DNA of 59,311 bases from NCBI GenBank assembly GCA_964597775.1, contig CAZQZJ010000003.1:1-59311 (forward strand), read 5' to 3'. Both the position numbers and the translations under genes were made by a program. This DNA comes from an uncultured Methanosarcinales archaeon. GTDB lineage: Archaea > Nanobdellota > Nanobdellia > Woesearchaeales > JAGWAF01. The notes beneath the pieces were generated by a model. That model was not told where the DNA came from and searched no databases. It was given only the letters and a program-made list of their open reading frames with translations. The first letter of the stretch is position 1, and the number at the start of each line of letters is the position of its first letter. This document shows positions 22,957 to 57,932 of the stretch, piece by piece.

Positions 22957-23001
22957 CTACTAACGAAGAATTTAAATAACTCCTCATTACACTGTTAGAA
23001 C

Positions 23002-23715
23002 ATGAAGGTTCGAATAAAACGAGGAGAACAAGTACCACCAGCACCAACATACACACTACCACGAAACGAATCTAAAACCAAAACACAATCTATGATACAG
23101 CGCAAAACTATGGTACACAAACCAGAACCACCATATCTTACTATTGCATTTCTAATCCTAATCATCAGCAGCCTTTACTGGGCACAAACAAACCAGAACA
23201 CAGTAACACAACTCACATACACAGACCAAGAAATTCTACACAACCTTACCCAAACACACACTGACCTCACTGCAACAGACCTGAGTATTATCAACACTGA
23301 AAACCTACTTGTGACAAATGCATTATTCCACGTAACCCAATTCAACCCTGCAAAACGCATGGCACTTTACCGTGCACTAAGCAGCGGAAACAACAGCTAT
23401 GAATCCCGCATTCTTAAACACTGGCAAACAAACATATCAGACACTACACCAGTTACTGATGTACGCAATGACCTAATGACAAGCTTTTTATCAATCAGAC
23501 CAGAAGCAACACCAAAACAAGAAACCATTGCAAACCTTTTTGACTCACTTGATGACTTGCTACGCAAAAAAACCATGCTTTTAACCCTTACACAACAACT
23601 CCAAGAACAACATTATACCACCACAACAAAGATATTAGCATCTCAACGCATTGCAACCATTGCATGGATCATCTTTGCAATGATCACCTTACTCTTTCTT
23701 TTTCTAAAACGATAA
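23002..23715 (+). CDS. Two-TM membrane protein with a helical extracellular domain
   Basis: TM near aa 46-62, a C-terminal TM, and a Thr/Gln-rich helical middle. Confidence 0.7.
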   Translation: MKVRIKRGEQVPPAPTYTLPRNESKTKTQSMIQRKTMVHKPEPPYLTIAFLILIISSLYWAQTNQNTVTQLTYTDQEILHNLTQTHTDLTATDLSIINTENLLVTNALFHVTQFNPAKRMALYRALSSGNNSYESRILKHWQTNISDTTPVTDVRNDLMTSFLSIRPEATPKQETIANLFDSLDDLLRKKTMLLTLTQQLQEQHYTTTTKILASQRIATIAWIIFAMITLLFLFLKR

Positions 23716-23725
23716 CAAGGGATCT

Positions 23726-24493
23726 ATGAATTACCTAAGAGTTATCAGCCCTGGATTTGACACAGGAGCCAGACACATGGCATGGGACGAAGCCATACTT
23801 AACCATGTGAACACAAACCAAAGCCCACCAACACTTCGACTCTACTACTTCAACCCACCAGCAGTCACACTATCATCAGAATGCCACCTAGATATTATCA
23901 ATAAAACTACCTGCACACAACAACAAATTGATATTATCCGCAGACCAACTGGAGGATCAGCACTTTTTCACAACAGAAAAGATCTTGCTTATTCATTTAT
24001 CGCACCAATCTATTTATTTGAAGAACAAAAACCAGTAAAGATAATGCGCAATATCTGTAACCAAATTGCTAGTGCATTTACTACAATTGGAATCCCTGCA
24101 TATCTTAACCAAAAAAGCAATACCAATATCCTTATCGACGGGAAAAAAATAAGTGGAAGCGCAAGCATGATCAAAACCAACGCCATACTTGTCCACGGAA
24201 GCATCTTTCACAATATTGACACAATACTCATCAGTTCACTAATTAACATCCCACAACAAGATCTTGAAAACAGAATGATTGGAATTTCCACATACACCAA
24301 CAACCATGCTGAAATCCATAATGCCATTATCAACGCACTCTCATACAAACTTGAAATCAGAATTAATGAAACAGCAACTGAATCTGAACATCATGACATG
24401 CACAGAATACTCCAAGACAAATTCAGCACTACATCAGAATGGCTCACAGCAGGAAAGAAACACAAAAAATACTGTGGATCAAGCATCGAATGA
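23726..24493 (+). CDS. Lipoate-protein ligase A / LipM-like octanoyltransferase
   Basis: HMAWDEAIL, TLRLY, RRPTGGSALFH, GKKISGSA and VHGSI; adjacent to the dehydrogenase operon. Confidence 0.9.
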   Translation: MNYLRVISPGFDTGARHMAWDEAILNHVNTNQSPPTLRLYYFNPPAVTLSSECHLDIINKTTCTQQQIDIIRRPTGGSALFHNRKDLAYSFIAPIYLFEEQKPVKIMRNICNQIASAFTTIGIPAYLNQKSNTNILIDGKKISGSASMIKTNAILVHGSIFHNIDTILISSLINIPQQDLENRMIGISTYTNNHAEIHNAIINALSYKLEIRINETATESEHHDMHRILQDKFSTTSEWLTAGKKHKKYCGSSIE

Positions 24494-24528
24494 AAAAATG
24501 CTCGGCTGTGCCACAGCCTCGCATTTTT
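24494..24528. terminator. Putative bidirectional terminator
   Basis: AAAAATGC-TC-GGCTGT-GCC-ACAGCC-TC-GCATTTTT between convergent genes. Confidence 0.6.
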
Positions 24529-24549
24529 ATTAAGAGGTAATAAAGACTT

Positions 24550-25923
24550 CTAATCACGTTCAATTAACAACAAATCAGGATCCTCAAGATGCTCCTTTAC
24601 CACATTCATAAAACGCGCAGCCTGTGCACCATCAAGAATCCTATGATCAAATGTTAGTGACAAGGGAAGTACCAACCTAGACATTATCTGATGCTCAACT
24701 ATCCTTGGCAACTCCTGCATTCTTCCCACACCAAGAATTGCAGCCTCAGGAAAATTTACAATTGGAGTAAAATGCGTGCCTCCAATTGAACCAATATTTG
24801 TAATTGTAAAAACACCACCTTTTAGATCAGCAGGATCAAGCTTACGATCTTGCGCCTTTTTCACCAAATCTTGTAATTCTTTAGCAATCTCAAGCACAGA
24901 TTTTGCATCAACAGACTTAATCACTGGAACTAACAAACCATCATCTATATCAACAGCCACACCAATATTGAAATATTTCTTAACAACAACCTCTTCTTGC
25001 ACATCATCAAGCGAAGATGCCAGAATTGGAAACTGCCTTATCCCAGCAACAACAGCCTTAATAATAAACGGCATCAAAGTCAACTTTACTCCTTTTTTAT
25101 CAGCAACAAGCTTCTGCTTTTGACGAATCTCCCACAGATGCGTCACATCAACATCATCCATATGAGTCACTGGAACAACAGATGCAAGAGCTTGAACCAT
25201 ATGCTTTGCAGTTACCTTTCTAATACCAAGTAATTGAATATGATCAATATACCCATACAAATCATACTTACGCACCAATTTTGGAGATGGACTACTATCA
25301 ACTGGAGATAATGAACTATCAGAAACAGATTTAAAACCTGATTTTAGAGCTACAAGAACATCATCCTGAGTAACAACAGCACCTACACCTGAAGGTTTAA
25401 TATTCTTAATATCAACTCCAAGTGACAAAGCTAATTTCCTTACTGCAGGAAGAGCAAGAGGTGAACTTTGCATACCTATTTTCTGATCTGAAGAATTTGA
25501 AACAGAGGCATTTCCTGTTATCAAACCTTTAGTCAAATCACCATTATCCTCAGAAGCTTCTTCTAATTCACCTACAACACCTGACCAGTGTTTTATCTGC
25601 TGCATATCCTTATTCTTAGAAACCACCTGCTGCTTAGACATTAACTCTACCATCCGTCCTCCAGATATTGCAGTAGCAACTACCTCATCATCACTACCAA
25701 TTACCACAAGCACATCACCAACCCTGATTTTCTCACCCTCATTACCAAATCTATTGAGAATCCTACCTTTTTTTGGAGAAGGAATCTCAACAATAGCCTT
25801 ATCAGTCTCAACCTCAAGAAGAACTTGATCTGCATCAACCATATCACCTTGCTTCACATGCCACTTCACAATCTCACCCTCTACAATACCCTCACCAACA
25901 TCAGGAAAACGAAACTCTATCAC
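24550..25923 (-). CDS. pdhC: 2-oxoacid dehydrogenase E2 (dihydrolipoamide acyltransferase)
   Basis: One lipoyl domain (EVETDKA), PSBD (ALPAVRKLA...G...DDV) and catalytic DHRILDG. Substrate specificity not resolved. Confidence 0.93.
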   Translation of the reverse strand: MIEFRFPDVGEGIVEGEIVKWHVKQGDMVDADQVLLEVETDKAIVEIPSPKKGRILNRFGNEGEKIRVGDVLVVIGSDDEVVATAISGGRMVELMSKQQVVSKNKDMQQIKHWSGVVGELEEASEDNGDLTKGLITGNASVSNSSDQKIGMQSSPLALPAVRKLALSLGVDIKNIKPSGVGAVVTQDDVLVALKSGFKSVSDSSLSPVDSSPSPKLVRKYDLYGYIDHIQLLGIRKVTAKHMVQALASVVPVTHMDDVDVTHLWEIRQKQKLVADKKGVKLTLMPFIIKAVVAGIRQFPILASSLDDVQEEVVVKKYFNIGVAVDIDDGLLVPVIKSVDAKSVLEIAKELQDLVKKAQDRKLDPADLKGGVFTITNIGSIGGTHFTPIVNFPEAAILGVGRMQELPRIVEHQIMSRLVLPLSLTFDHRILDGAQAARFMNVVKEHLEDPDLLLIERD

Positions 25924-26894
25924 TGCACCATCACCTGCTTTATCGCACGAACAATCCGAAACATATCAGGAATATAATACTGCTCTAAACGCGCCAAAGG
26001 CATAACTGTATCAAAACCAGTAACACGAACTGGAGATGCCTGCAATGAATACAAACAATGCTCAACAACAACAGCCAAAAGCTCTGCAGCAAACCCACAC
26101 AACCTTGGAGCTTCATTCACAATCACAACCCTACCAGTTTTTTGCACAGATGAGATAATAGCACCCTTATCCAATGGAGAAAGCGTCTGCAGATCAATAA
26201 CCTCAACTGAATACCTATTTGAAACCTCTTGCGCAGCTTCTATACAAGTTCTCATCATCGCACCATAAGAAATCAATGTAAGATCAGAACCCTCCTTAAC
26301 CACACGTGCCTTACCTAATGGAATCACATACTCCTCCTCAGAAACCTCCTCTTTAATTGCACGATACACACGTTTAGGCTCTAAAAATAGCACAGGATCA
26401 GGATCACGAATCGCAGCAACCATCAAACCCTTAGCAGCAAAAGGAGTACTTGGAGTCACTACTTTTAACCCAGGGATATGTGCATAAAAGGCTTCAACAG
26501 ATTCAGAATGATGCTCTAATGCACGAATCCCACCAGTATACGGCGAACGAATCACCATCTGCGCATGAAACCTACCACGAGAACGATTCCTAATCCGCGC
26601 CACATTATTAATAATCTGATCAAAAGCAGGAGCAAGAAAACCCTCAAACTGAATCTCACACACAGGCTTAAGACCAAAACAAGACATACCAAAACACGAA
26701 CCAACAATACCAGACTCAGCAAGAGGCGTATCAAACACACGCTTTTCCCCAAATAAATCCAACAAACCCTGAGTCACACGAAACACACCACCATTTTTTG
26801 CAACATCCTCACCACACACAATAACAGCAGAATCTTTTAACATCTCCTGACGAAGCGCAAGATTAATTGCCTCCACCATATTCAAGCGAGGCAT
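25920..26894 (-). CDS. pdhB: 2-oxoacid dehydrogenase E1 beta
   Basis: GEDVAKNGGVFRVT, DTPLAESG, EHHSES, DPDPVLFLEPK and KTGRVVIV. Confidence 0.95.
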   Translation of the reverse strand: MPRLNMVEAINLALRQEMLKDSAVIVCGEDVAKNGGVFRVTQGLLDLFGEKRVFDTPLAESGIVGSCFGMSCFGLKPVCEIQFEGFLAPAFDQIINNVARIRNRSRGRFHAQMVIRSPYTGGIRALEHHSESVEAFYAHIPGLKVVTPSTPFAAKGLMVAAIRDPDPVLFLEPKRVYRAIKEEVSEEEYVIPLGKARVVKEGSDLTLISYGAMMRTCIEAAQEVSNRYSVEVIDLQTLSPLDKGAIISSVQKTGRVVIVNEAPRLCGFAAELLAVVVEHCLYSLQASPVRVTGFDTVMPLARLEQYYIPDMFRIVRAIKQVMVQ

Positions 26895-28018
26895 TACTTA
26901 CCACCTTCTTTTTTTTCATGCAGAATCTTTATGAGCTCCTGCTTTTGCTCAACCAAATCAGGAGTAGGATACTCATACATCCAATCAAAAAAATCAGTAG
27001 GATCAGGCACTGGAATCTTTTCAAATATCTGTACTTCATCTTCAACTTCCTTTGTCAAAGAAACCACCAGTTCCTTATCCTTTTGCTCTGACCACATCTT
27101 TTTCTGTATCAAAAATTTCTTCAAACGAAGAATTGGATCCTTTAACCTCCACTGCTCAACCTCTTTAGGATCACGATACCTTGATGCATCATCAGCAGTT
27201 GTATGATCTGAAAAACGATATGTTAAACACTCAATAACACTTGGCCCTTTTCCATTCCTTGCTTTTATCAATGCATCACCAACTACCTTAATCACAGCAA
27301 GCACATCCATTCCATCAACCTGAACACCACTAATACCTGCAGCAAACGCCTTCTGAGCAAGAGTCTGCGCCATACTCTGACACGAACAAGGAAACCTACC
27401 TTTACATATAGCACATGAACGAGAAACTGAGATTGCCCACTGATTATTCTCAATAACAAAAACCACTGGAGCCACAAATACACCTGCAAAATTCATTGCT
27501 TCACTTACATCACCAACAGAGGTTGCACCATCACCAAGAAACACTAACGAAGCCCAAGACTCACCCTTCAAACTCGCAGCCATTGCAGCACCAACTGCAT
27601 GCAAGGCCTGCGAACCAACACAGATCTGAATTGGAAACAGATTCACAGCCTTAGGCAGATTCATACTCCTCTCATCACCAGCACTATACTGATACAACTG
27701 ATGCAAAGGAGCACCTCTTGCAATAAACGCACCCCAATCACGATACAAAGGAAAAATCCAATCATCCTTACCCACTGCATACGCAGCACCAACCTGAGTC
27801 GCTTCCTGACCTTGACAAGAAGCAAGGGTTCCTACACGACCCTGACGCTGCAACAACAACCCCTTACTATCAAATAGTCTTGTACGCAACATTAACCTAT
27901 AAACCCCTAGCAACTCCTTATTTGATATATCAGGAAGAAACTTAGCATCTACTTTACCATTTTCATCAAGAACCTGAACATATTCAATTTTATACCTTGC
28001 CACTACCTTCTTAGACAT
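26894..28018 (-). CDS. pdhA: 2-oxoacid dehydrogenase E1 alpha with a Cys4 insertion
   Basis: RQGR...GQEA, TPP motif GDGATS...ENNQWAIS and YRFSDHTTADDASRYR; ATG at 28018 (MSKKVV). Confidence 0.95.
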   Translation of the reverse strand: MSKKVVARYKIEYVQVLDENGKVDAKFLPDISNKELLGVYRLMLRTRLFDSKGLLLQRQGRVGTLASCQGQEATQVGAAYAVGKDDWIFPLYRDWGAFIARGAPLHQLYQYSAGDERSMNLPKAVNLFPIQICVGSQALHAVGAAMAASLKGESWASLVFLGDGATSVGDVSEAMNFAGVFVAPVVFVIENNQWAISVSRSCAICKGRFPCSCQSMAQTLAQKAFAAGISGVQVDGMDVLAVIKVVGDALIKARNGKGPSVIECLTYRFSDHTTADDASRYRDPKEVEQWRLKDPILRLKKFLIQKKMWSEQKDKELVVSLTKEVEDEVQIFEKIPVPDPTDFFDWMYEYPTPDLVEQKQELIKILHEKKEGGK

Positions 28019-28955
28019 GATGCATATCCCCCAAAAACAACTCTGCAGCACGATAACTTGAACGCACCAGAGGACCAGCAGCCACATATCTAAAACCACA
28101 AGAGAGTGCCTCTTGCTTTAACACATCAAAATCCTGAGGCGAGACAAACTCCACAACAGGAATATGCCTAGGTGATGGCTGAAGATACTGACCAAAGGTC
28201 ACAACCTCAACACCAACTGCACGCAAATCAACACATGCAACAAGAACCTCACCTCTTGATTCACCAAGACCAAGCATCAAGGAAGACTTTGTAATAATAG
28301 AAGAATCCTTCTGCTTTACAAAATGTAGTACCTCAAGTGATTGTTCATACCCAGCACGAGGATCCCGCACCTTTCTTTGCAAGGACTGCACAGTCTCGAG
28401 ATTATGCGCAATCACATCAGGTTTGGCATCAATAATGATCTGCAAGAGTTCACGATTACCACAAAAATCAGGGATAAGAACCTCAATCTTAATAGTTGGA
28501 CACTGCTGCCTCACCTCCTTAATGCATGCTGCAATATGATATGCTCCTTGATCCTTAAGATCATCACGATCAACACTTGTAATCACAACATAAGACAAAC
28601 CAAGTTGTGCAATTGCAGATCCAATCCTTTGTGGCTCATGCGGATCAAGAGGTTTTGCAGGAAAACCAGTCTTGACATGACAGAATTTACACGCCCTTGT
28701 ACAGGTATCACCCATTACCATCACTGTCACAGTACCACCAGACCAACACTCACTAATATTCGGACACCTAGCTTCTTCACAAACAGTCACTAGATTTAAT
28801 GATCTTAACAATGATTTGATCTCTACATACTTTTTACCTGGAGGACGAATCTTAAACCAGGCAGGTAAGCTATGCTTAACTAACAACCTACTTTTTTCAT
28901 CAATACCTGACACTACCTGCAATACATTATTTGCACTCATCATCCTGTAGCCCAT
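28011..28955 (-). CDS. lipA: Lipoyl synthase
   Basis: CEEARCPNISEC auxiliary cluster, CTRACKFC radical SAM motif, HNLETV, GQYLQP and RSSY. Confidence 0.96.
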   Translation of the reverse strand: MGYRMMSANNVLQVVSGIDEKSRLLVKHSLPAWFKIRPPGKKYVEIKSLLRSLNLVTVCEEARCPNISECWSGGTVTVMVMGDTCTRACKFCHVKTGFPAKPLDPHEPQRIGSAIAQLGLSYVVITSVDRDDLKDQGAYHIAACIKEVRQQCPTIKIEVLIPDFCGNRELLQIIIDAKPDVIAHNLETVQSLQRKVRDPRAGYEQSLEVLHFVKQKDSSIITKSSLMLGLGESRGEVLVACVDLRAVGVEVVTFGQYLQPSPRHIPVVEFVSPQDFDVLKQEALSCGFRYVAAGPLVRSSYRAAELFLGDMHHV

Positions 28956-29206
28956 TTCTTAAGAACATCAATATTCACAGCACCACAAATCCACTTCCCA
29001 GTCTTTGTATTAAAAAAAAACGGAACACCACCACAAAAACCCTTATCATAACCAGCCAAAAGCTTTGCATTCTTCTCATCATGCCACACCTCCAAACGAT
29101 CCACATTTACCCCCAACTCCTTCTCTAATTGATCAACTAAAGGATCCATCTCATGACAGTGAGTACATTCCCTTCCAGTAAACATGATAAGATAGGACTG
29201 TGCCAT
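28940..29206 (-). CDS. Thioredoxin-like protein
   Basis: CTHC active site and GGVP cis-Pro motif; first gene of the lipA-E1-E2 operon. Confidence 0.85.
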   Translation of the reverse strand: MAQSYLIMFTGRECTHCHEMDPLVDQLEKELGVNVDRLEVWHDEKNAKLLAGYDKGFCGGVPFFFNTKTGKWICGAVNIDVLKKWATG

Positions 29207-29228
29207 AACCTTTTTTTGAAAAAGATTG

Positions 29229-29238
29229 TATATAAATA
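29229..29238 (-). promoter_or_regulatory. TATA box of the trx-lipA-pdhABC operon
   Basis: TATTTATATA on the minus strand about 25-30 nt upstream of the ATG at 29206. Confidence 0.55.
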
Positions 29239-29292
29239 GTGCGTTTCCTCTGATTTGTAATAGCTACTCTCCAACTGATTTGTCAAGGATCG

Positions 29293-29436
29293 ATGTTAGC
29301 TTTCCTTTCTAAATTTATTGAGTTTGAGTACGTATTAAGCAGGGGTCAGTAGTCTGGTCAGTTGGTAGAGGGCATTCTTGCAGGACTTATCACCATTGGA
29401 CTAATCCTTATCAAACTGATTCATCGTACTTGTTAA
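29293..29436 (+). pseudogene. Possible small membrane-protein pseudogene
   Basis: MLAFLSKFIEFEYVLSRGQ*SGQLVEGILAGLITIGLILIKLIHRTC*: one internal TAG (29350-29352), a TM-like C-terminus, and a stop supplied by the adjacent repeat. Confidence 0.35.
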
Positions 29437-29685
29437 GACCCTATCTGTTGCAGAGGCGCTGACTTGTGTTTGCATTCGCAAACACACAACGCCGCTCGCA
29501 CCTCACAGAACTATTCAAAGAAACCCTCCTATCTGGAACCTCCTCGGGTTTGCGTAGAACTTCATAATAGTGCTCGCATCCTGGCACAATCGAACCCTTC
29601 GGCTTTCGCTGTGCACAAGGTCGAAATGCGACCTTGTTGCGTTCCACGCCAGCGCCTCTGCATAACACCTGGCTTAACAAGTACG
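29425..29685. mobile_element. 261-bp non-autonomous REPIN/MITE-like element built from two inverted module-B ends
   Basis: 13-bp terminal IR CGTACTTGTTAAG/CTTAACAAGTACG, subterminal IR TGCAGAGGCGCTG/CAGCGCCTCTGCA, flanking direct repeat ATTCAT (29419-29424, 29686-29691), and a GC-rich multi-hairpin core. Confidence 0.8.
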
Positions 29686-29747
29686 ATTCATACCAATGTT
29701 TAAAAACTTGCAGAGACTCTAACTAAAAACCGCACAGCGGTTTTTCC

Positions 29748-29820
29748 AGGCCTGTGGTCTAGCGGCTATGACGCCACCTTCACATGGTGGAGGTCAAGGG
29801 TTCAAATCCCTTCAGGCCTA
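29748..29820 (+). tRNA. tRNA-Val(CAC)
   Basis: AGGCCTG/CAGGCCT+A73, anticodon arm CCACC-TT-CAC-AT-GGTGG, T-arm AAGGG-TTCAAAT-CCCTT. Confidence 0.95.
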
Positions 29821-29898
29821 TTAACCTTGTTCAGAGTTGGTGGTATGTGATTTTGGTAACAAACAAACCTTTTTATAATCCTGACTATCCTCAAGATT

Positions 29899-30150
29899 GT
29901 GGACCAAAACCCTGAACCAAATATTCCAGATCCAAATACTGAAGAACAACGATTTGCCGTACTTATCCTACGCAGAATAGATAAACAAACCAAACAAACA
30001 CACCTCTCAATGCAAACACGAGGAGAAGGAATCACACTTGCAGAAGCAGCAATCATTCTTGAAGGTTGGTCAAAAAAAGTCAAAACTGAACTCCAACGAC
30101 CATTCACTGACAACCTTATCTTTGGAGGAAACGAAGCTAAAACAACCTAA
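29899..30150 (+). CDS. Hypothetical protein
   Basis: 83-aa ORF, GTG start, host-like codon style, convergent with the next gene. Confidence 0.55.
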   Translation: MDQNPEPNIPDPNTEEQRFAVLILRRIDKQTKQTHLSMQTRGEGITLAEAAIILEGWSKKVKTELQRPFTDNLIFGGNEAKTT

Positions 30151-30653
30151 ACATTCACAAGAACATCTGCTCTTAACCCTGCAACCATACCTAAACTACC
30201 AATACCACTTACACCAATTATTGTAATCACATCTAAATTTTTTGTAACACGCAACACCTCTTCAATCACACTTGCAAACATAAAATGAAGATCATCTTTA
30301 TCTAACTCTTCTTTATAAAAAAGCCTATCAAAACCAGAAATAACTAACACCTTACTTTTATATTTTTGCAACACTTGCTCAATCCTTATTATAAGATCAC
30401 GAAACTCAACTGCAGAAAGAGGACGAGCAAGCATAATCTTATGCATATCACAAATCAAAGGCTTGTGATAATACTGCCCAACAAACACAGGATTAAAGGT
30501 AGCAGCAGCATCAATAAAAGTCACCATACCAGAGGATTGTAATCTTAATGCCAATGAAATCAAGAGTGTTGAGGTTATTGCCACATCACCTTGCAACACA
30601 ACCACTTTACCAGAATTGCACTCAAAATCCTCACACCACAAATCCTGTCTCAT
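30147..30653 (-). CDS. Degenerate RadA/RecA-like (ImuA-like) protein
   Basis: VTFIDAAATFNP, MLARPLS and VLVISGFDRLFY resemble RecA-fold strands; no Walker A (LQGDVAITS). Confidence 0.6.
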   Translation of the reverse strand: MRQDLWCEDFECNSGKVVVLQGDVAITSTLLISLALRLQSSGMVTFIDAAATFNPVFVGQYYHKPLICDMHKIMLARPLSAVEFRDLIIRIEQVLQKYKSKVLVISGFDRLFYKEELDKDDLHFMFASVIEEVLRVTKNLDVITIIGVSGIGSLGMVAGLRADVLVNV

Positions 30654-30793
30654 ACCACTTTACTTTATTTTACTATTTAAATCCCGATTGGATCCTTGTC
30701 TAGTGTGCCTAGTCCGATTTATTTATAAACAACAAGAACAATCTCTTCTTGTTTAATATAATGATTCATAATTGAGAATAATATCTCTTCAAG

Positions 30794-57776: not shown

Positions 57777-57932
57777 GGGGCTGTAGTATAACTTGGCTAG
57801 AATAGGTGGCTCCAGTCATGGAGCGATGAGCTGCAGTAATCTGTAGCAATGAAATAAACCTATGGTCTGTTGAAGCCTTTGCTTCAAGGAAGAGACCACC
57901 GGATCAGGGTTCAAATCCCTGCAGCCCCACCA
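57777..57932 (+). tRNA. tRNA-Trp(CCA) with a canonical 37/38 intron (57816-57894) and encoded CCA
   Basis: GGGGCTG/CAGCCCC-A-CCA; anticodon stem GGTGG/CCACC; BHB with central helix CTCC/GAAG (one mismatch) and intron stem CATGGAGC/GCTTCAAG; TTTATAAA about 30 nt upstream. Confidence 0.95.
57816..57894 (+). ncRNA. Intron-encoded box C/D-like guide RNA (putative Cm34/Cm39)
   Basis: TGGAGC-g-ATGA and TGGTCT-g-TTGA: antisense elements place C34 and C39 opposite the fifth nt upstream of D-like boxes. Confidence 0.55.

Follow-up and report, generated by a model that had tools for sequence, protein, structure and literature searches.

A 2-oxoacid dehydrogenase gene cluster led by a thioredoxin-like gene and without an E3 gene in a relative of the Woesearchaeota

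Results

Gene organization of the cluster

We analyzed a stretch of 59,311 nucleotides, positions 1 to 59,311 of contig CAZQZJ010000003.1 (assembly GCA_964597775.1; here referred to as the window, whose positions serve as coordinates below), from a groundwater archaeon with a genome of 1.19 Mb that is estimated to be 100% complete. Genes were identified from the list of open reading frames (ORFs) together with Pfam and NCBIfam profile searches of the window. We focused on a cluster on the minus strand with the order trx-like gene, lipA, E1alpha, E1beta and E2, and with a convergent LplA-type gene beyond E2. Judging from these genes, the cluster encodes an E1alpha-beta/E2-type pyruvate/2-oxoacid dehydrogenase complex (of the pyruvate dehydrogenase type, PDH) together with its own lipoylation enzymes, and the usual gene for dihydrolipoamide dehydrogenase (E3, gene lpdA) appears to be replaced by one for a dedicated four-cysteine thioredoxin-fold protein. 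A preliminary description of this DNA had reported the five minus-strand genes with overlapping stops and starts, the convergent LplA/LipM gene and the absence of E3 from the window, and had pointed to DPANN. The six genes were recovered at the same positions, the profile searches found no E3 gene in the window, and the nearest named relatives are Woesearchaeota. The names of these homologues, together with a tRNA that has an intron, put the organism with the Woesearchaeota-type DPANN archaea.

The trx-like gene (28940..29206, minus strand) is the first of the operon and encodes 88 amino acids with a predicted thioredoxin fold; some 25 nt ahead of its ATG there is a TATA-like box rich in A/T. 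It is followed on the same strand by lipA (28011..28955), whose product is a lipoyl synthase at the level of the equivalog model, with Radical_SAM and LIAS_N domains and 372 bits to TIGR00510 (cut-off 310). The start of lipA is probably the ATG at 28943; start and trx stop then share the sequence ATGA. E1alpha (26894..28018, minus strand; true start probably the ATG at 28018) is a thiamine pyrophosphate (TPP)-binding subunit of the PDH 'x' subgroup, with 265 bits to PF00676 and 427 bits to TIGR03181 (cut-off 411). E1beta (25920..26894, minus strand) carries Transket_pyr (PF02779) and Transketolase_C (PF02780) and scores 300 bits with NF006667, and the dihydrolipoyl acyltransferase E2 (24550..25923, minus strand) carries the lipoyl (PF00364), PSBD (PF02817) and catalytic (PF00198) domains. 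Besides the ATGA junction, which holds if lipA begins at 28943, lipA and E1alpha overlap by 8 nt, E1alpha and E1beta by 1 nt, and E1beta and E2 as GTGA. Since the minus-strand genes overlap or abut throughout, one translationally coupled transcript is indicated.

The convergent gene (23726..24493, plus strand) has an LplA-B_cat domain (PF21948, 101.9 bits) and is LplA/LipM-like, but its product falls below every NCBIfam equivalog cut-off (81.9 bits against 280 for TIGR00545). The gap of 56 bp between its stop and that of E2 holds a hairpin with T-runs on both sides (24504..24518), which looks like a bidirectional terminator; three sites were observed, against 0.2 expected in shuffles.

E1, E2 and their cysteines

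The domains and motifs of E1alpha, E1beta and E2 are all present, and these parts are ordinary members of the PDH/2-oxoacid dehydrogenase families. In the E2 translation, ETDKA marks the lipoyl lysine, and FDHRILDG matches the catalytic motif DHRxxDG. PF00364 matches a single site in the whole genome, so that E2 holds its sole lipoyl domain and the only lipoyl or biotinyl domain; no GcvH was found by profile search of the whole genome.

In E1alpha of the host, about 11 residues containing four cysteines, C-x-x-C-x5-C-x-C (27371..27427, minus strand), are inserted directly after the NNQWAIS motif, in a loop that we take to correspond to the regulatory/active-site loop of other E1alpha. Thirteen other E1alpha, including trx-led ones, do not have the insertion. 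Being unique to the host among the 14 compared, it was rejected as a partner of the trx-like protein. E1alpha and E1beta have no conserved Cys pair that sets trx-led clusters apart, nor was one seen in trx-led E2, a comparison that included no E3-linked E2. A regulatory disulfide conserved in E1 or E2 of trx-led clusters was therefore not found, so that the lipoyl dithiol remains as the thiol substrate shared by these complexes.

A thioredoxin-like protein with four cysteines

The active site of the trx-like protein reads E-C-T-H-C (C14 and C17), with two more cysteines at C58, in C-G-G-x-cisPro62, and at C74-G75. E13, C14, P22, W41, H42, N46, C58, G59, P62, F63, C74 and G75 are invariant in 120 homologues, and H16 and C17 are nearly so. 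By its motif, C-x-H-C, the site is PDI/DsbA-like; the two additional cysteines, C58 and C74, presumably lie on the surface patch around it, as judged from E. coli thioredoxin. The AlphaFold2 model (pLDDT 89.6; beta-alpha-beta-alpha-beta-beta-alpha) confidently predicts a minimal thioredoxin/glutaredoxin fold. The top Foldseek matches are archaeal thioredoxins at a TM-score of about 0.7, and archaeal and bacterial thioredoxins together span 0.6–0.74. The CxxC at the N-terminus of helix 1 and the cis-Pro loop, in which V61-P62 is conserved, place the protein in the thioredoxin superfamily. It is not a classical TrxA, having E-C-T-H-C instead of WCGPC and scoring 20.5 bits with PF00085, below the gathering cut-off of 23.5. 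Searches of Pfam, the PDB and the Atlas gave nothing more specific than "thioredoxin", with no close solved or curated family.

A housekeeping thioredoxin (104 bits) is encoded on contig C19, and a low-molecular-weight thioredoxin reductase (TrxR) also lies elsewhere in the genome. The trx-like protein is thus a second thioredoxin, distinct from the housekeeping one, and a closed woesearchaeal genome (G061, below) likewise encodes a separate classical thioredoxin and a low-molecular-weight TrxR. In longer relatives (P0124, P0126, P0123 and P0129) the thioredoxin-like domain is joined with MsrB or with a dual-specificity phosphatase domain. Eukaryotic homologues, from Galdieria, the apicomplexan Cardiosporidium and an MMETSP marine-eukaryote transcriptome, keep all four cysteines, read CDHC or CEHC and are about 50% identical; a search started from the Cardiosporidium homologue returned only one further protein.

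Conservation of the cluster among genomes

We scanned one genome per species and obtained at least 544 relatives of the trx-like gene; the counts below are from the best 80 species-level loci. These come from Woesearchaeota, Aenigmatarchaeota, Nanoarchaeia, several lineages of Patescibacteria, Desulfobacca, Desulfarculaceae and Syntrophobacterales. E1alpha was within reach of the trx-like gene in 53 of the 80 loci, and in 42 loci it lay on the same strand no more than 2.5 kb downstream; of the loci with 4 kb or more on each side, only five had no E1alpha. Among the 53 loci with E1alpha, E2 was present in 39, lipA in 15 and an LpdA-like gene in one. The trx-lipA-PDH synteny pointed to in the preliminary description therefore extends across domains in its trx-E1 part and is infrequent in its lipA part, and the trx-like gene is linked to E1/E2 rather than to lipA specifically.

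The complete order trx-lipA-E1a-E1b-E2 is repeated in three other families of the same order (G054, G036 and G035). In G058, E1a-E1b-E2 lie about 3 kb downstream of trx on one contig with no intervening lipA, and in G025 trx-lipA is followed by the contig end. Metagenome contigs show trx-E1a-lplA-E1b-PNPOx-E2, trx-E1a-lplA-lipA-E1b-E2 and a looser third form, never with E3. In the first of these forms a PNPOx-like gene for an FMN-binding split-barrel protein stands between E1beta and E2 (L030:12156-12656), and its product could be another electron outlet. Desulfobacca-type clusters consist of trx-E1a-E1b only, with a single stand-alone E2 elsewhere. We considered that the trx-like protein might replace the lipoyl/E2 step there, and rejected this because each of these genomes has that one E2.

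Recurrent neighbours were counted by clustering over 88 loci. Besides the genes named above, these were the alpha and beta subunits of ADP-forming acetyl-CoA synthetase (13 and 11 loci), extra LplA-type genes (11), Glu/Leu/Phe/Val dehydrogenase (9) and peroxiredoxin (7), followed by aminotransferase, CcdA/DsbD_TM and TrxR (6 each). A general linkage to TrxR was rejected, since no more than four of the 80 species-level loci have TrxR within 10 kb, and closed G061 is the single case of adjacency. In several Patescibacteria (L125:10001-11023 and five other loci) the trx-like gene stands away from E1 and is directly followed by a CcdA/DsbD_TM gene.

Search for E3 in the whole genome

The preliminary description had suggested that E3 might be encoded elsewhere. 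The whole genome contains one class-I flavoprotein disulfide reductase, on contig C7 (C7:12455-13780). It retains the CxxxxC disulfide and the FAD/NAD domains, and with 431 bits it passes the lipoamide-dehydrogenase model TIGR01350 (cut-off 408.8). Its score is higher with NF004991 ("FAD-containing oxidoreductase", 533.6 bits), the MerA model gives 409 bits, and the best solved relative in the PDB is a mercuric reductase. At the dyad site it reads H-V-Y-P-T-L-S-G, against H-x-H-P-T-x-x-E in all operon E3s of relatives: the catalytic His is replaced by Tyr and its Glu partner by Gly. Consequently, no class-I reductase with both CxxxxC and the C-terminal His-Glu dyad was found in the genome. Two genomes that are at least 99% complete (G038 and G042) contain an NF004991-type, Tyr-bearing reductase but no E2, so this type does not regularly accompany lipoylated substrates.

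The loss of the dyad, the higher NF004991 score and the same type in genomes without E2 together indicate that a canonical lpdA is not present, and the C7 reductase was rejected as an unlinked canonical lpdA. The suggestion of an E3 elsewhere thus stands only insofar as one Tyr-type reductase passes the E3 model. It is unlikely that this reductase acts on lipoamide; if it does, E2, as the sole lipoyl protein, would be its only possible client. Its downstream neighbour is a gene for a VTT/DedA membrane protein (both genes together, locus L001:730-2838). The Tyr-type reductases of other genomes are also adjacent or fused to VTT/DedA, with fusion ORFs of 783–796 amino acids in Desulfobacca-type genomes.

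Distribution of the trx-like gene and E3

Clusters in 61 relatives are of two types, E1a-E1b-E2-lpdA without the trx-like gene and trx-led without lpdA, and both types occur together in G058 (contigs C43 and C59). Another genome of the order with both is G164 (C24 and C52). Our wider survey took in 401 genomes of the order with a completeness of 85% or more; 73 of these have E1alpha. Seventy were used, two unpublished genomes (G334 and G247) and one with a weak match (G186) being left out. A strong or operon-type E3 was present in 4 of 24 genomes with the trx-like gene and in 32 of 46 without it (Fisher p = 3.5e-5). Conversely, no class-I reductase at E <= 1e-60 was found in 10 of the 24 and in 4 of the 46 (p = 0.003). 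Both p-values overstate the significance because related genomes are not independent, and absences are uncertain because most of the genomes are metagenome-assembled. Two of the 10 trx-bearing, reductase-free genomes are estimated to be 100% complete. The trx-like gene is strongly anticorrelated with operon E3, though not strictly exclusive of E3.

Ten further genomes from the scan included six without any E3-like match at E <= 1e-20 (G061, G063, G064, G068, G069 and G070), and no Pyr_redox_dim domain was found at E <= 0.01 in the five of these that were tested. One of the six, G061, is a closed Woesearchaeota chromosome of 737 kb (CP066683.1) with trx-E1a-lpl-E1b-E2 and no Pyr_redox_dim domain, in which a TrxR gene is divergently adjacent to the trx-like gene. 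Low-molecular-weight TrxR was found in every E3-less genome tested. Among 42 more genomes with trx and E1a, 20 had no match at E <= 1e-60 and 13 only matches below the cut-off. Several of the latter are MerA (G065, 515 bits to TIGR02053) or Tyr/Phe-type reductases; others, for example in G035, are dyad-bearing and E3-like, matching NF004946/7.

We considered whether E3-linked and trx-led clusters form separate deep clades, and a quick tree of E1alpha rejected this. E3-linked E1alpha are nested among trx-led ones, which implies that the two layouts interconvert.

A natural deletion in a genome of the same genus

We compared positions 23000-30700 of the window with the corresponding region of G002, from the same genus (L028, G002:C11:1-5000). 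The flanks are in the same order and include a 237-aa ORF, the trx-like gene, a tRNA and the next two ORFs, while the 5.2-kb block lplA-E2-E1b-E1a-lipA is missing, and no E1alpha was found elsewhere in the G002 genome. The active site of the remaining trx-like protein reads C-E-H-S, the second active-site Cys being lost. Such a change would suit a protein that needs the complex for its function.

The 237-aa ORF (23002-23715, plus strand) ends 11 bp upstream of the lplA-like gene, has no Pfam or NCBIfam match, and was not found in 80 other loci. Elsewhere in the window, a tRNA match of 153 nt (57777-57929, plus strand) is far above plain tRNA length, which fits an archaeal intron-containing tRNA gene.

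Discussion

Comparison with known systems

In E1/E2 domain architecture the cluster is like the canonical Gram-positive/archaeal-type E1alpha-E1beta-E2-E3 operon of Thermoplasma and Bacillus, which relatives in the same order also carry, with a dyad-bearing lpdA as the last gene. It differs in having no E3, in its trx-like leader and in the lipoylation genes inside or beside it. In the literature that our searches covered, no PDH that is trx-led or lacks E3 was described for DPANN or the Candidate Phyla Radiation (CPR).

A lipoyl-protein complex without dihydrolipoamide dehydrogenase has a precedent in Eubacterium acidaminophilum, for which a small CxxU selenoprotein and the thioredoxin system were proposed as electron carriers of glycine decarboxylase (PMC4056300). 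The title of a paper by Meyer from 1991, cited there, states that thioredoxin elicits dihydrolipoamide dehydrogenase activity. The present cluster resembles that system and the one of Clostridium litorale in combining a lipoyl-protein complex lacking this enzyme with a thioredoxin system as the proposed carrier. However, theirs is a glycine decarboxylase of Firmicutes with an ordinary thioredoxin, whereas here the genes are those of a PDH-type E1/E2, with a distinct four-cysteine C-x-H-C thioredoxin-fold family as the operon leader.

Another likeness is to the relay of AhpD, DlaT, Lpd and AhpC in M. tuberculosis. As Bryk et al. reportedly found in 2002, AhpD, an adaptor with a CxxC, receives electrons from the dihydrolipoyl arm of PDH E2 (DlaT) and passes them to the peroxiredoxin AhpC; in our data, peroxiredoxin genes recur beside the clusters. 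AhpD, however, has an all-helical fold and its relay needs Lpd (E3) and NADH, whereas here the fold is that of thioredoxin and E3 is often absent.

The eukaryotic homologues recall ATrx2, the apicoplast thioredoxin-like protein 2 of Toxoplasma and Plasmodium, which has the motif CDHC/CEYC and a red-plastid distribution (PMC5823475). ATrx2 is a protein of about 50 kDa with extensions, and the roles assigned to it are in the expression of apicoplast genes and the sorting of proteins, outside PDH (PMC5823475). The comparison is one of motifs, CDHC/CEYC against CDHC or CEHC in the eukaryotic homologues and CTHC in the window protein, and a place of the trx-like protein in the ATrx2 family is tentative.

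Proposed role of the trx-like protein

We propose, with a probability of roughly one in two, that the trx-like protein reoxidises the lipoyl arm, as a surrogate of E3 or as an electron outlet. E1 and E2 would convert the 2-oxoacid to acyl-CoA, after which the lipoyl arm of E2 would be in its dithiol form. The C-x-H-C site of the trx-like protein, as an oxidised disulfide, would then take two electrons from the arm and restore lipoyl-E2. The trx-like protein could itself be reoxidised by low-molecular-weight TrxR running towards NAD(P)+, in which case thioredoxin and TrxR together would act as a dihydrolipoamide dehydrogenase. Alternatively, its electrons could go to acceptors that depend on thiols, for example peroxiredoxin, methionine sulfoxide reductase or CcdA. 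The direction and the partners of the electron flow are suggested by gene content; the MsrB fusions and the recurrence of peroxiredoxin, CcdA/DsbD_TM and TrxR as neighbours would agree with a reductant role elsewhere.

The preliminary description had suggested that the complex passes its electrons to thioredoxin. This idea gained comparative support from the trx-E1 synteny across domains, the anticorrelation with E3, the reductase-free genomes, including a closed one, and the relict trx-like gene of G002; the electron transfer itself would still be a reading of these genes. In a broader and tentative form, to which we give somewhat less than even odds, an E3-free class of PDH may be widespread in DPANN, Patescibacteria and anaerobic Desulfobacterota. 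In it a four-cysteine thioredoxin-fold protein, probably of the ATrx2 family, would reoxidise the lipoyl arm together with low-molecular-weight TrxR or thiol peroxidases, and 2-oxoacid oxidation would be wired to the thiol network and not to the NADH pool.

Several observations weigh against reoxidation by the trx-like protein. The C7 reductase passes the TIGR01350 cut-off in spite of its Tyr and might oxidise dihydrolipoamide. Four of the 24 trx-bearing genomes have a strong operon-type E3, and G035 has its dyad-bearing E3-like reductase below the model cut-off; with E3 alongside it in some genomes, the trx-like protein cannot be only a substitute for E3. In G005, lipA-lpl-E1-E2 is present but the trx-like gene and E3 are both missing, the Desulfobacca-type gene is linked to E1 while E2 is located elsewhere, and some members of the family sit without PDH genes, for example beside CcdA. 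A His-containing CxxC also suggests, as we assume, a rather oxidising potential, which would make a reverse flow through TrxR to NADP+ unfavourable. The statistical support is further reduced by the shared ancestry and the incompleteness of the genomes surveyed.

Alternative explanations

The C7 reductase is also the core of an account in which the complex is an ordinary four-component PDH with an unlinked E3, and the trx-like protein is only an accessory that draws electrons for antioxidant enzymes in the manner of AhpD. The score above the TIGR01350 cut-off, the conserved CxxxxC and FAD/NAD domains and the presence of E2 as the one lipoyl protein to be served all speak for it. Moreover, dyad-bearing E3s are encoded elsewhere in trx-led G025, G036 and G062, and the recurrent peroxiredoxin would suit the accessory role. 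Nevertheless, we consider this account doubtful: the His-Glu dyad is replaced, NF004991 is the family that fits best, a mercuric reductase is the closest match in the PDB, and the type adjoins or is fused with VTT/DedA and is present in nearly complete relatives without E2. In addition, the genomes without any class-I reductase would be left unexplained.

Two further accounts give the trx-like protein no part in catalytic flux or make it a regulator. It might serve the assembly or upkeep of the lipoyl group, either in the sulfur/cluster chemistry of LipA or in setting the redox state of a new or damaged arm. This would explain its translational coupling to lipA in the window and the LplA-type and often LipA genes in the clusters, and the four invariant cysteines with two conserved histidines could bind a metal or an iron-sulfur cluster. 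We find it improbable, however, because lipA is present in so few of the E1alpha loci, E1alpha directly follows the trx-like gene in most of them, and the Desulfobacca-type clusters consist of trx-E1a-E1b alone. Furthermore, the E3-linked clusters of relatives also need lipoylation and yet have no trx-like gene. The remaining account, a thiol switch on E1 or E2 responding to oxygen or redox state, analogous to the control of eukaryotic E1alpha by phosphorylation, seems to us the least probable. The tightest linkage is indeed to E1alpha, and the host E1alpha has its four-cysteine insertion in the loop after the TPP motif, but that insertion is peculiar to the host among the 14 E1alpha compared, and the E1alpha/E1beta comparison gave no Cys pair specific to trx-led clusters, nor did that of E2, which lacked E3-linked copies. 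A switch would also leave the anticorrelation with E3 unexplained.

Implications

E3 is treated as obligatory in every 2-oxoacid dehydrogenase complex. If reoxidation of the lipoyl arm by the trx-like protein is true, the metabolism reconstructed from genomes of DPANN, CPR and some sulfate reducers would look different, and what now reads as an "incomplete PDH" would be functional. The formation of acyl-CoA and ATP would then be linked to thiol-based antioxidant or reductive pathways, a link on which the genes for ADP-forming acetyl-CoA synthetase, amino-acid dehydrogenase and aminotransferase bear as recurrent neighbours of the cluster. In that case there might also be a first biochemical hint at what ATrx2, an essential protein of the apicoplast, did ancestrally.

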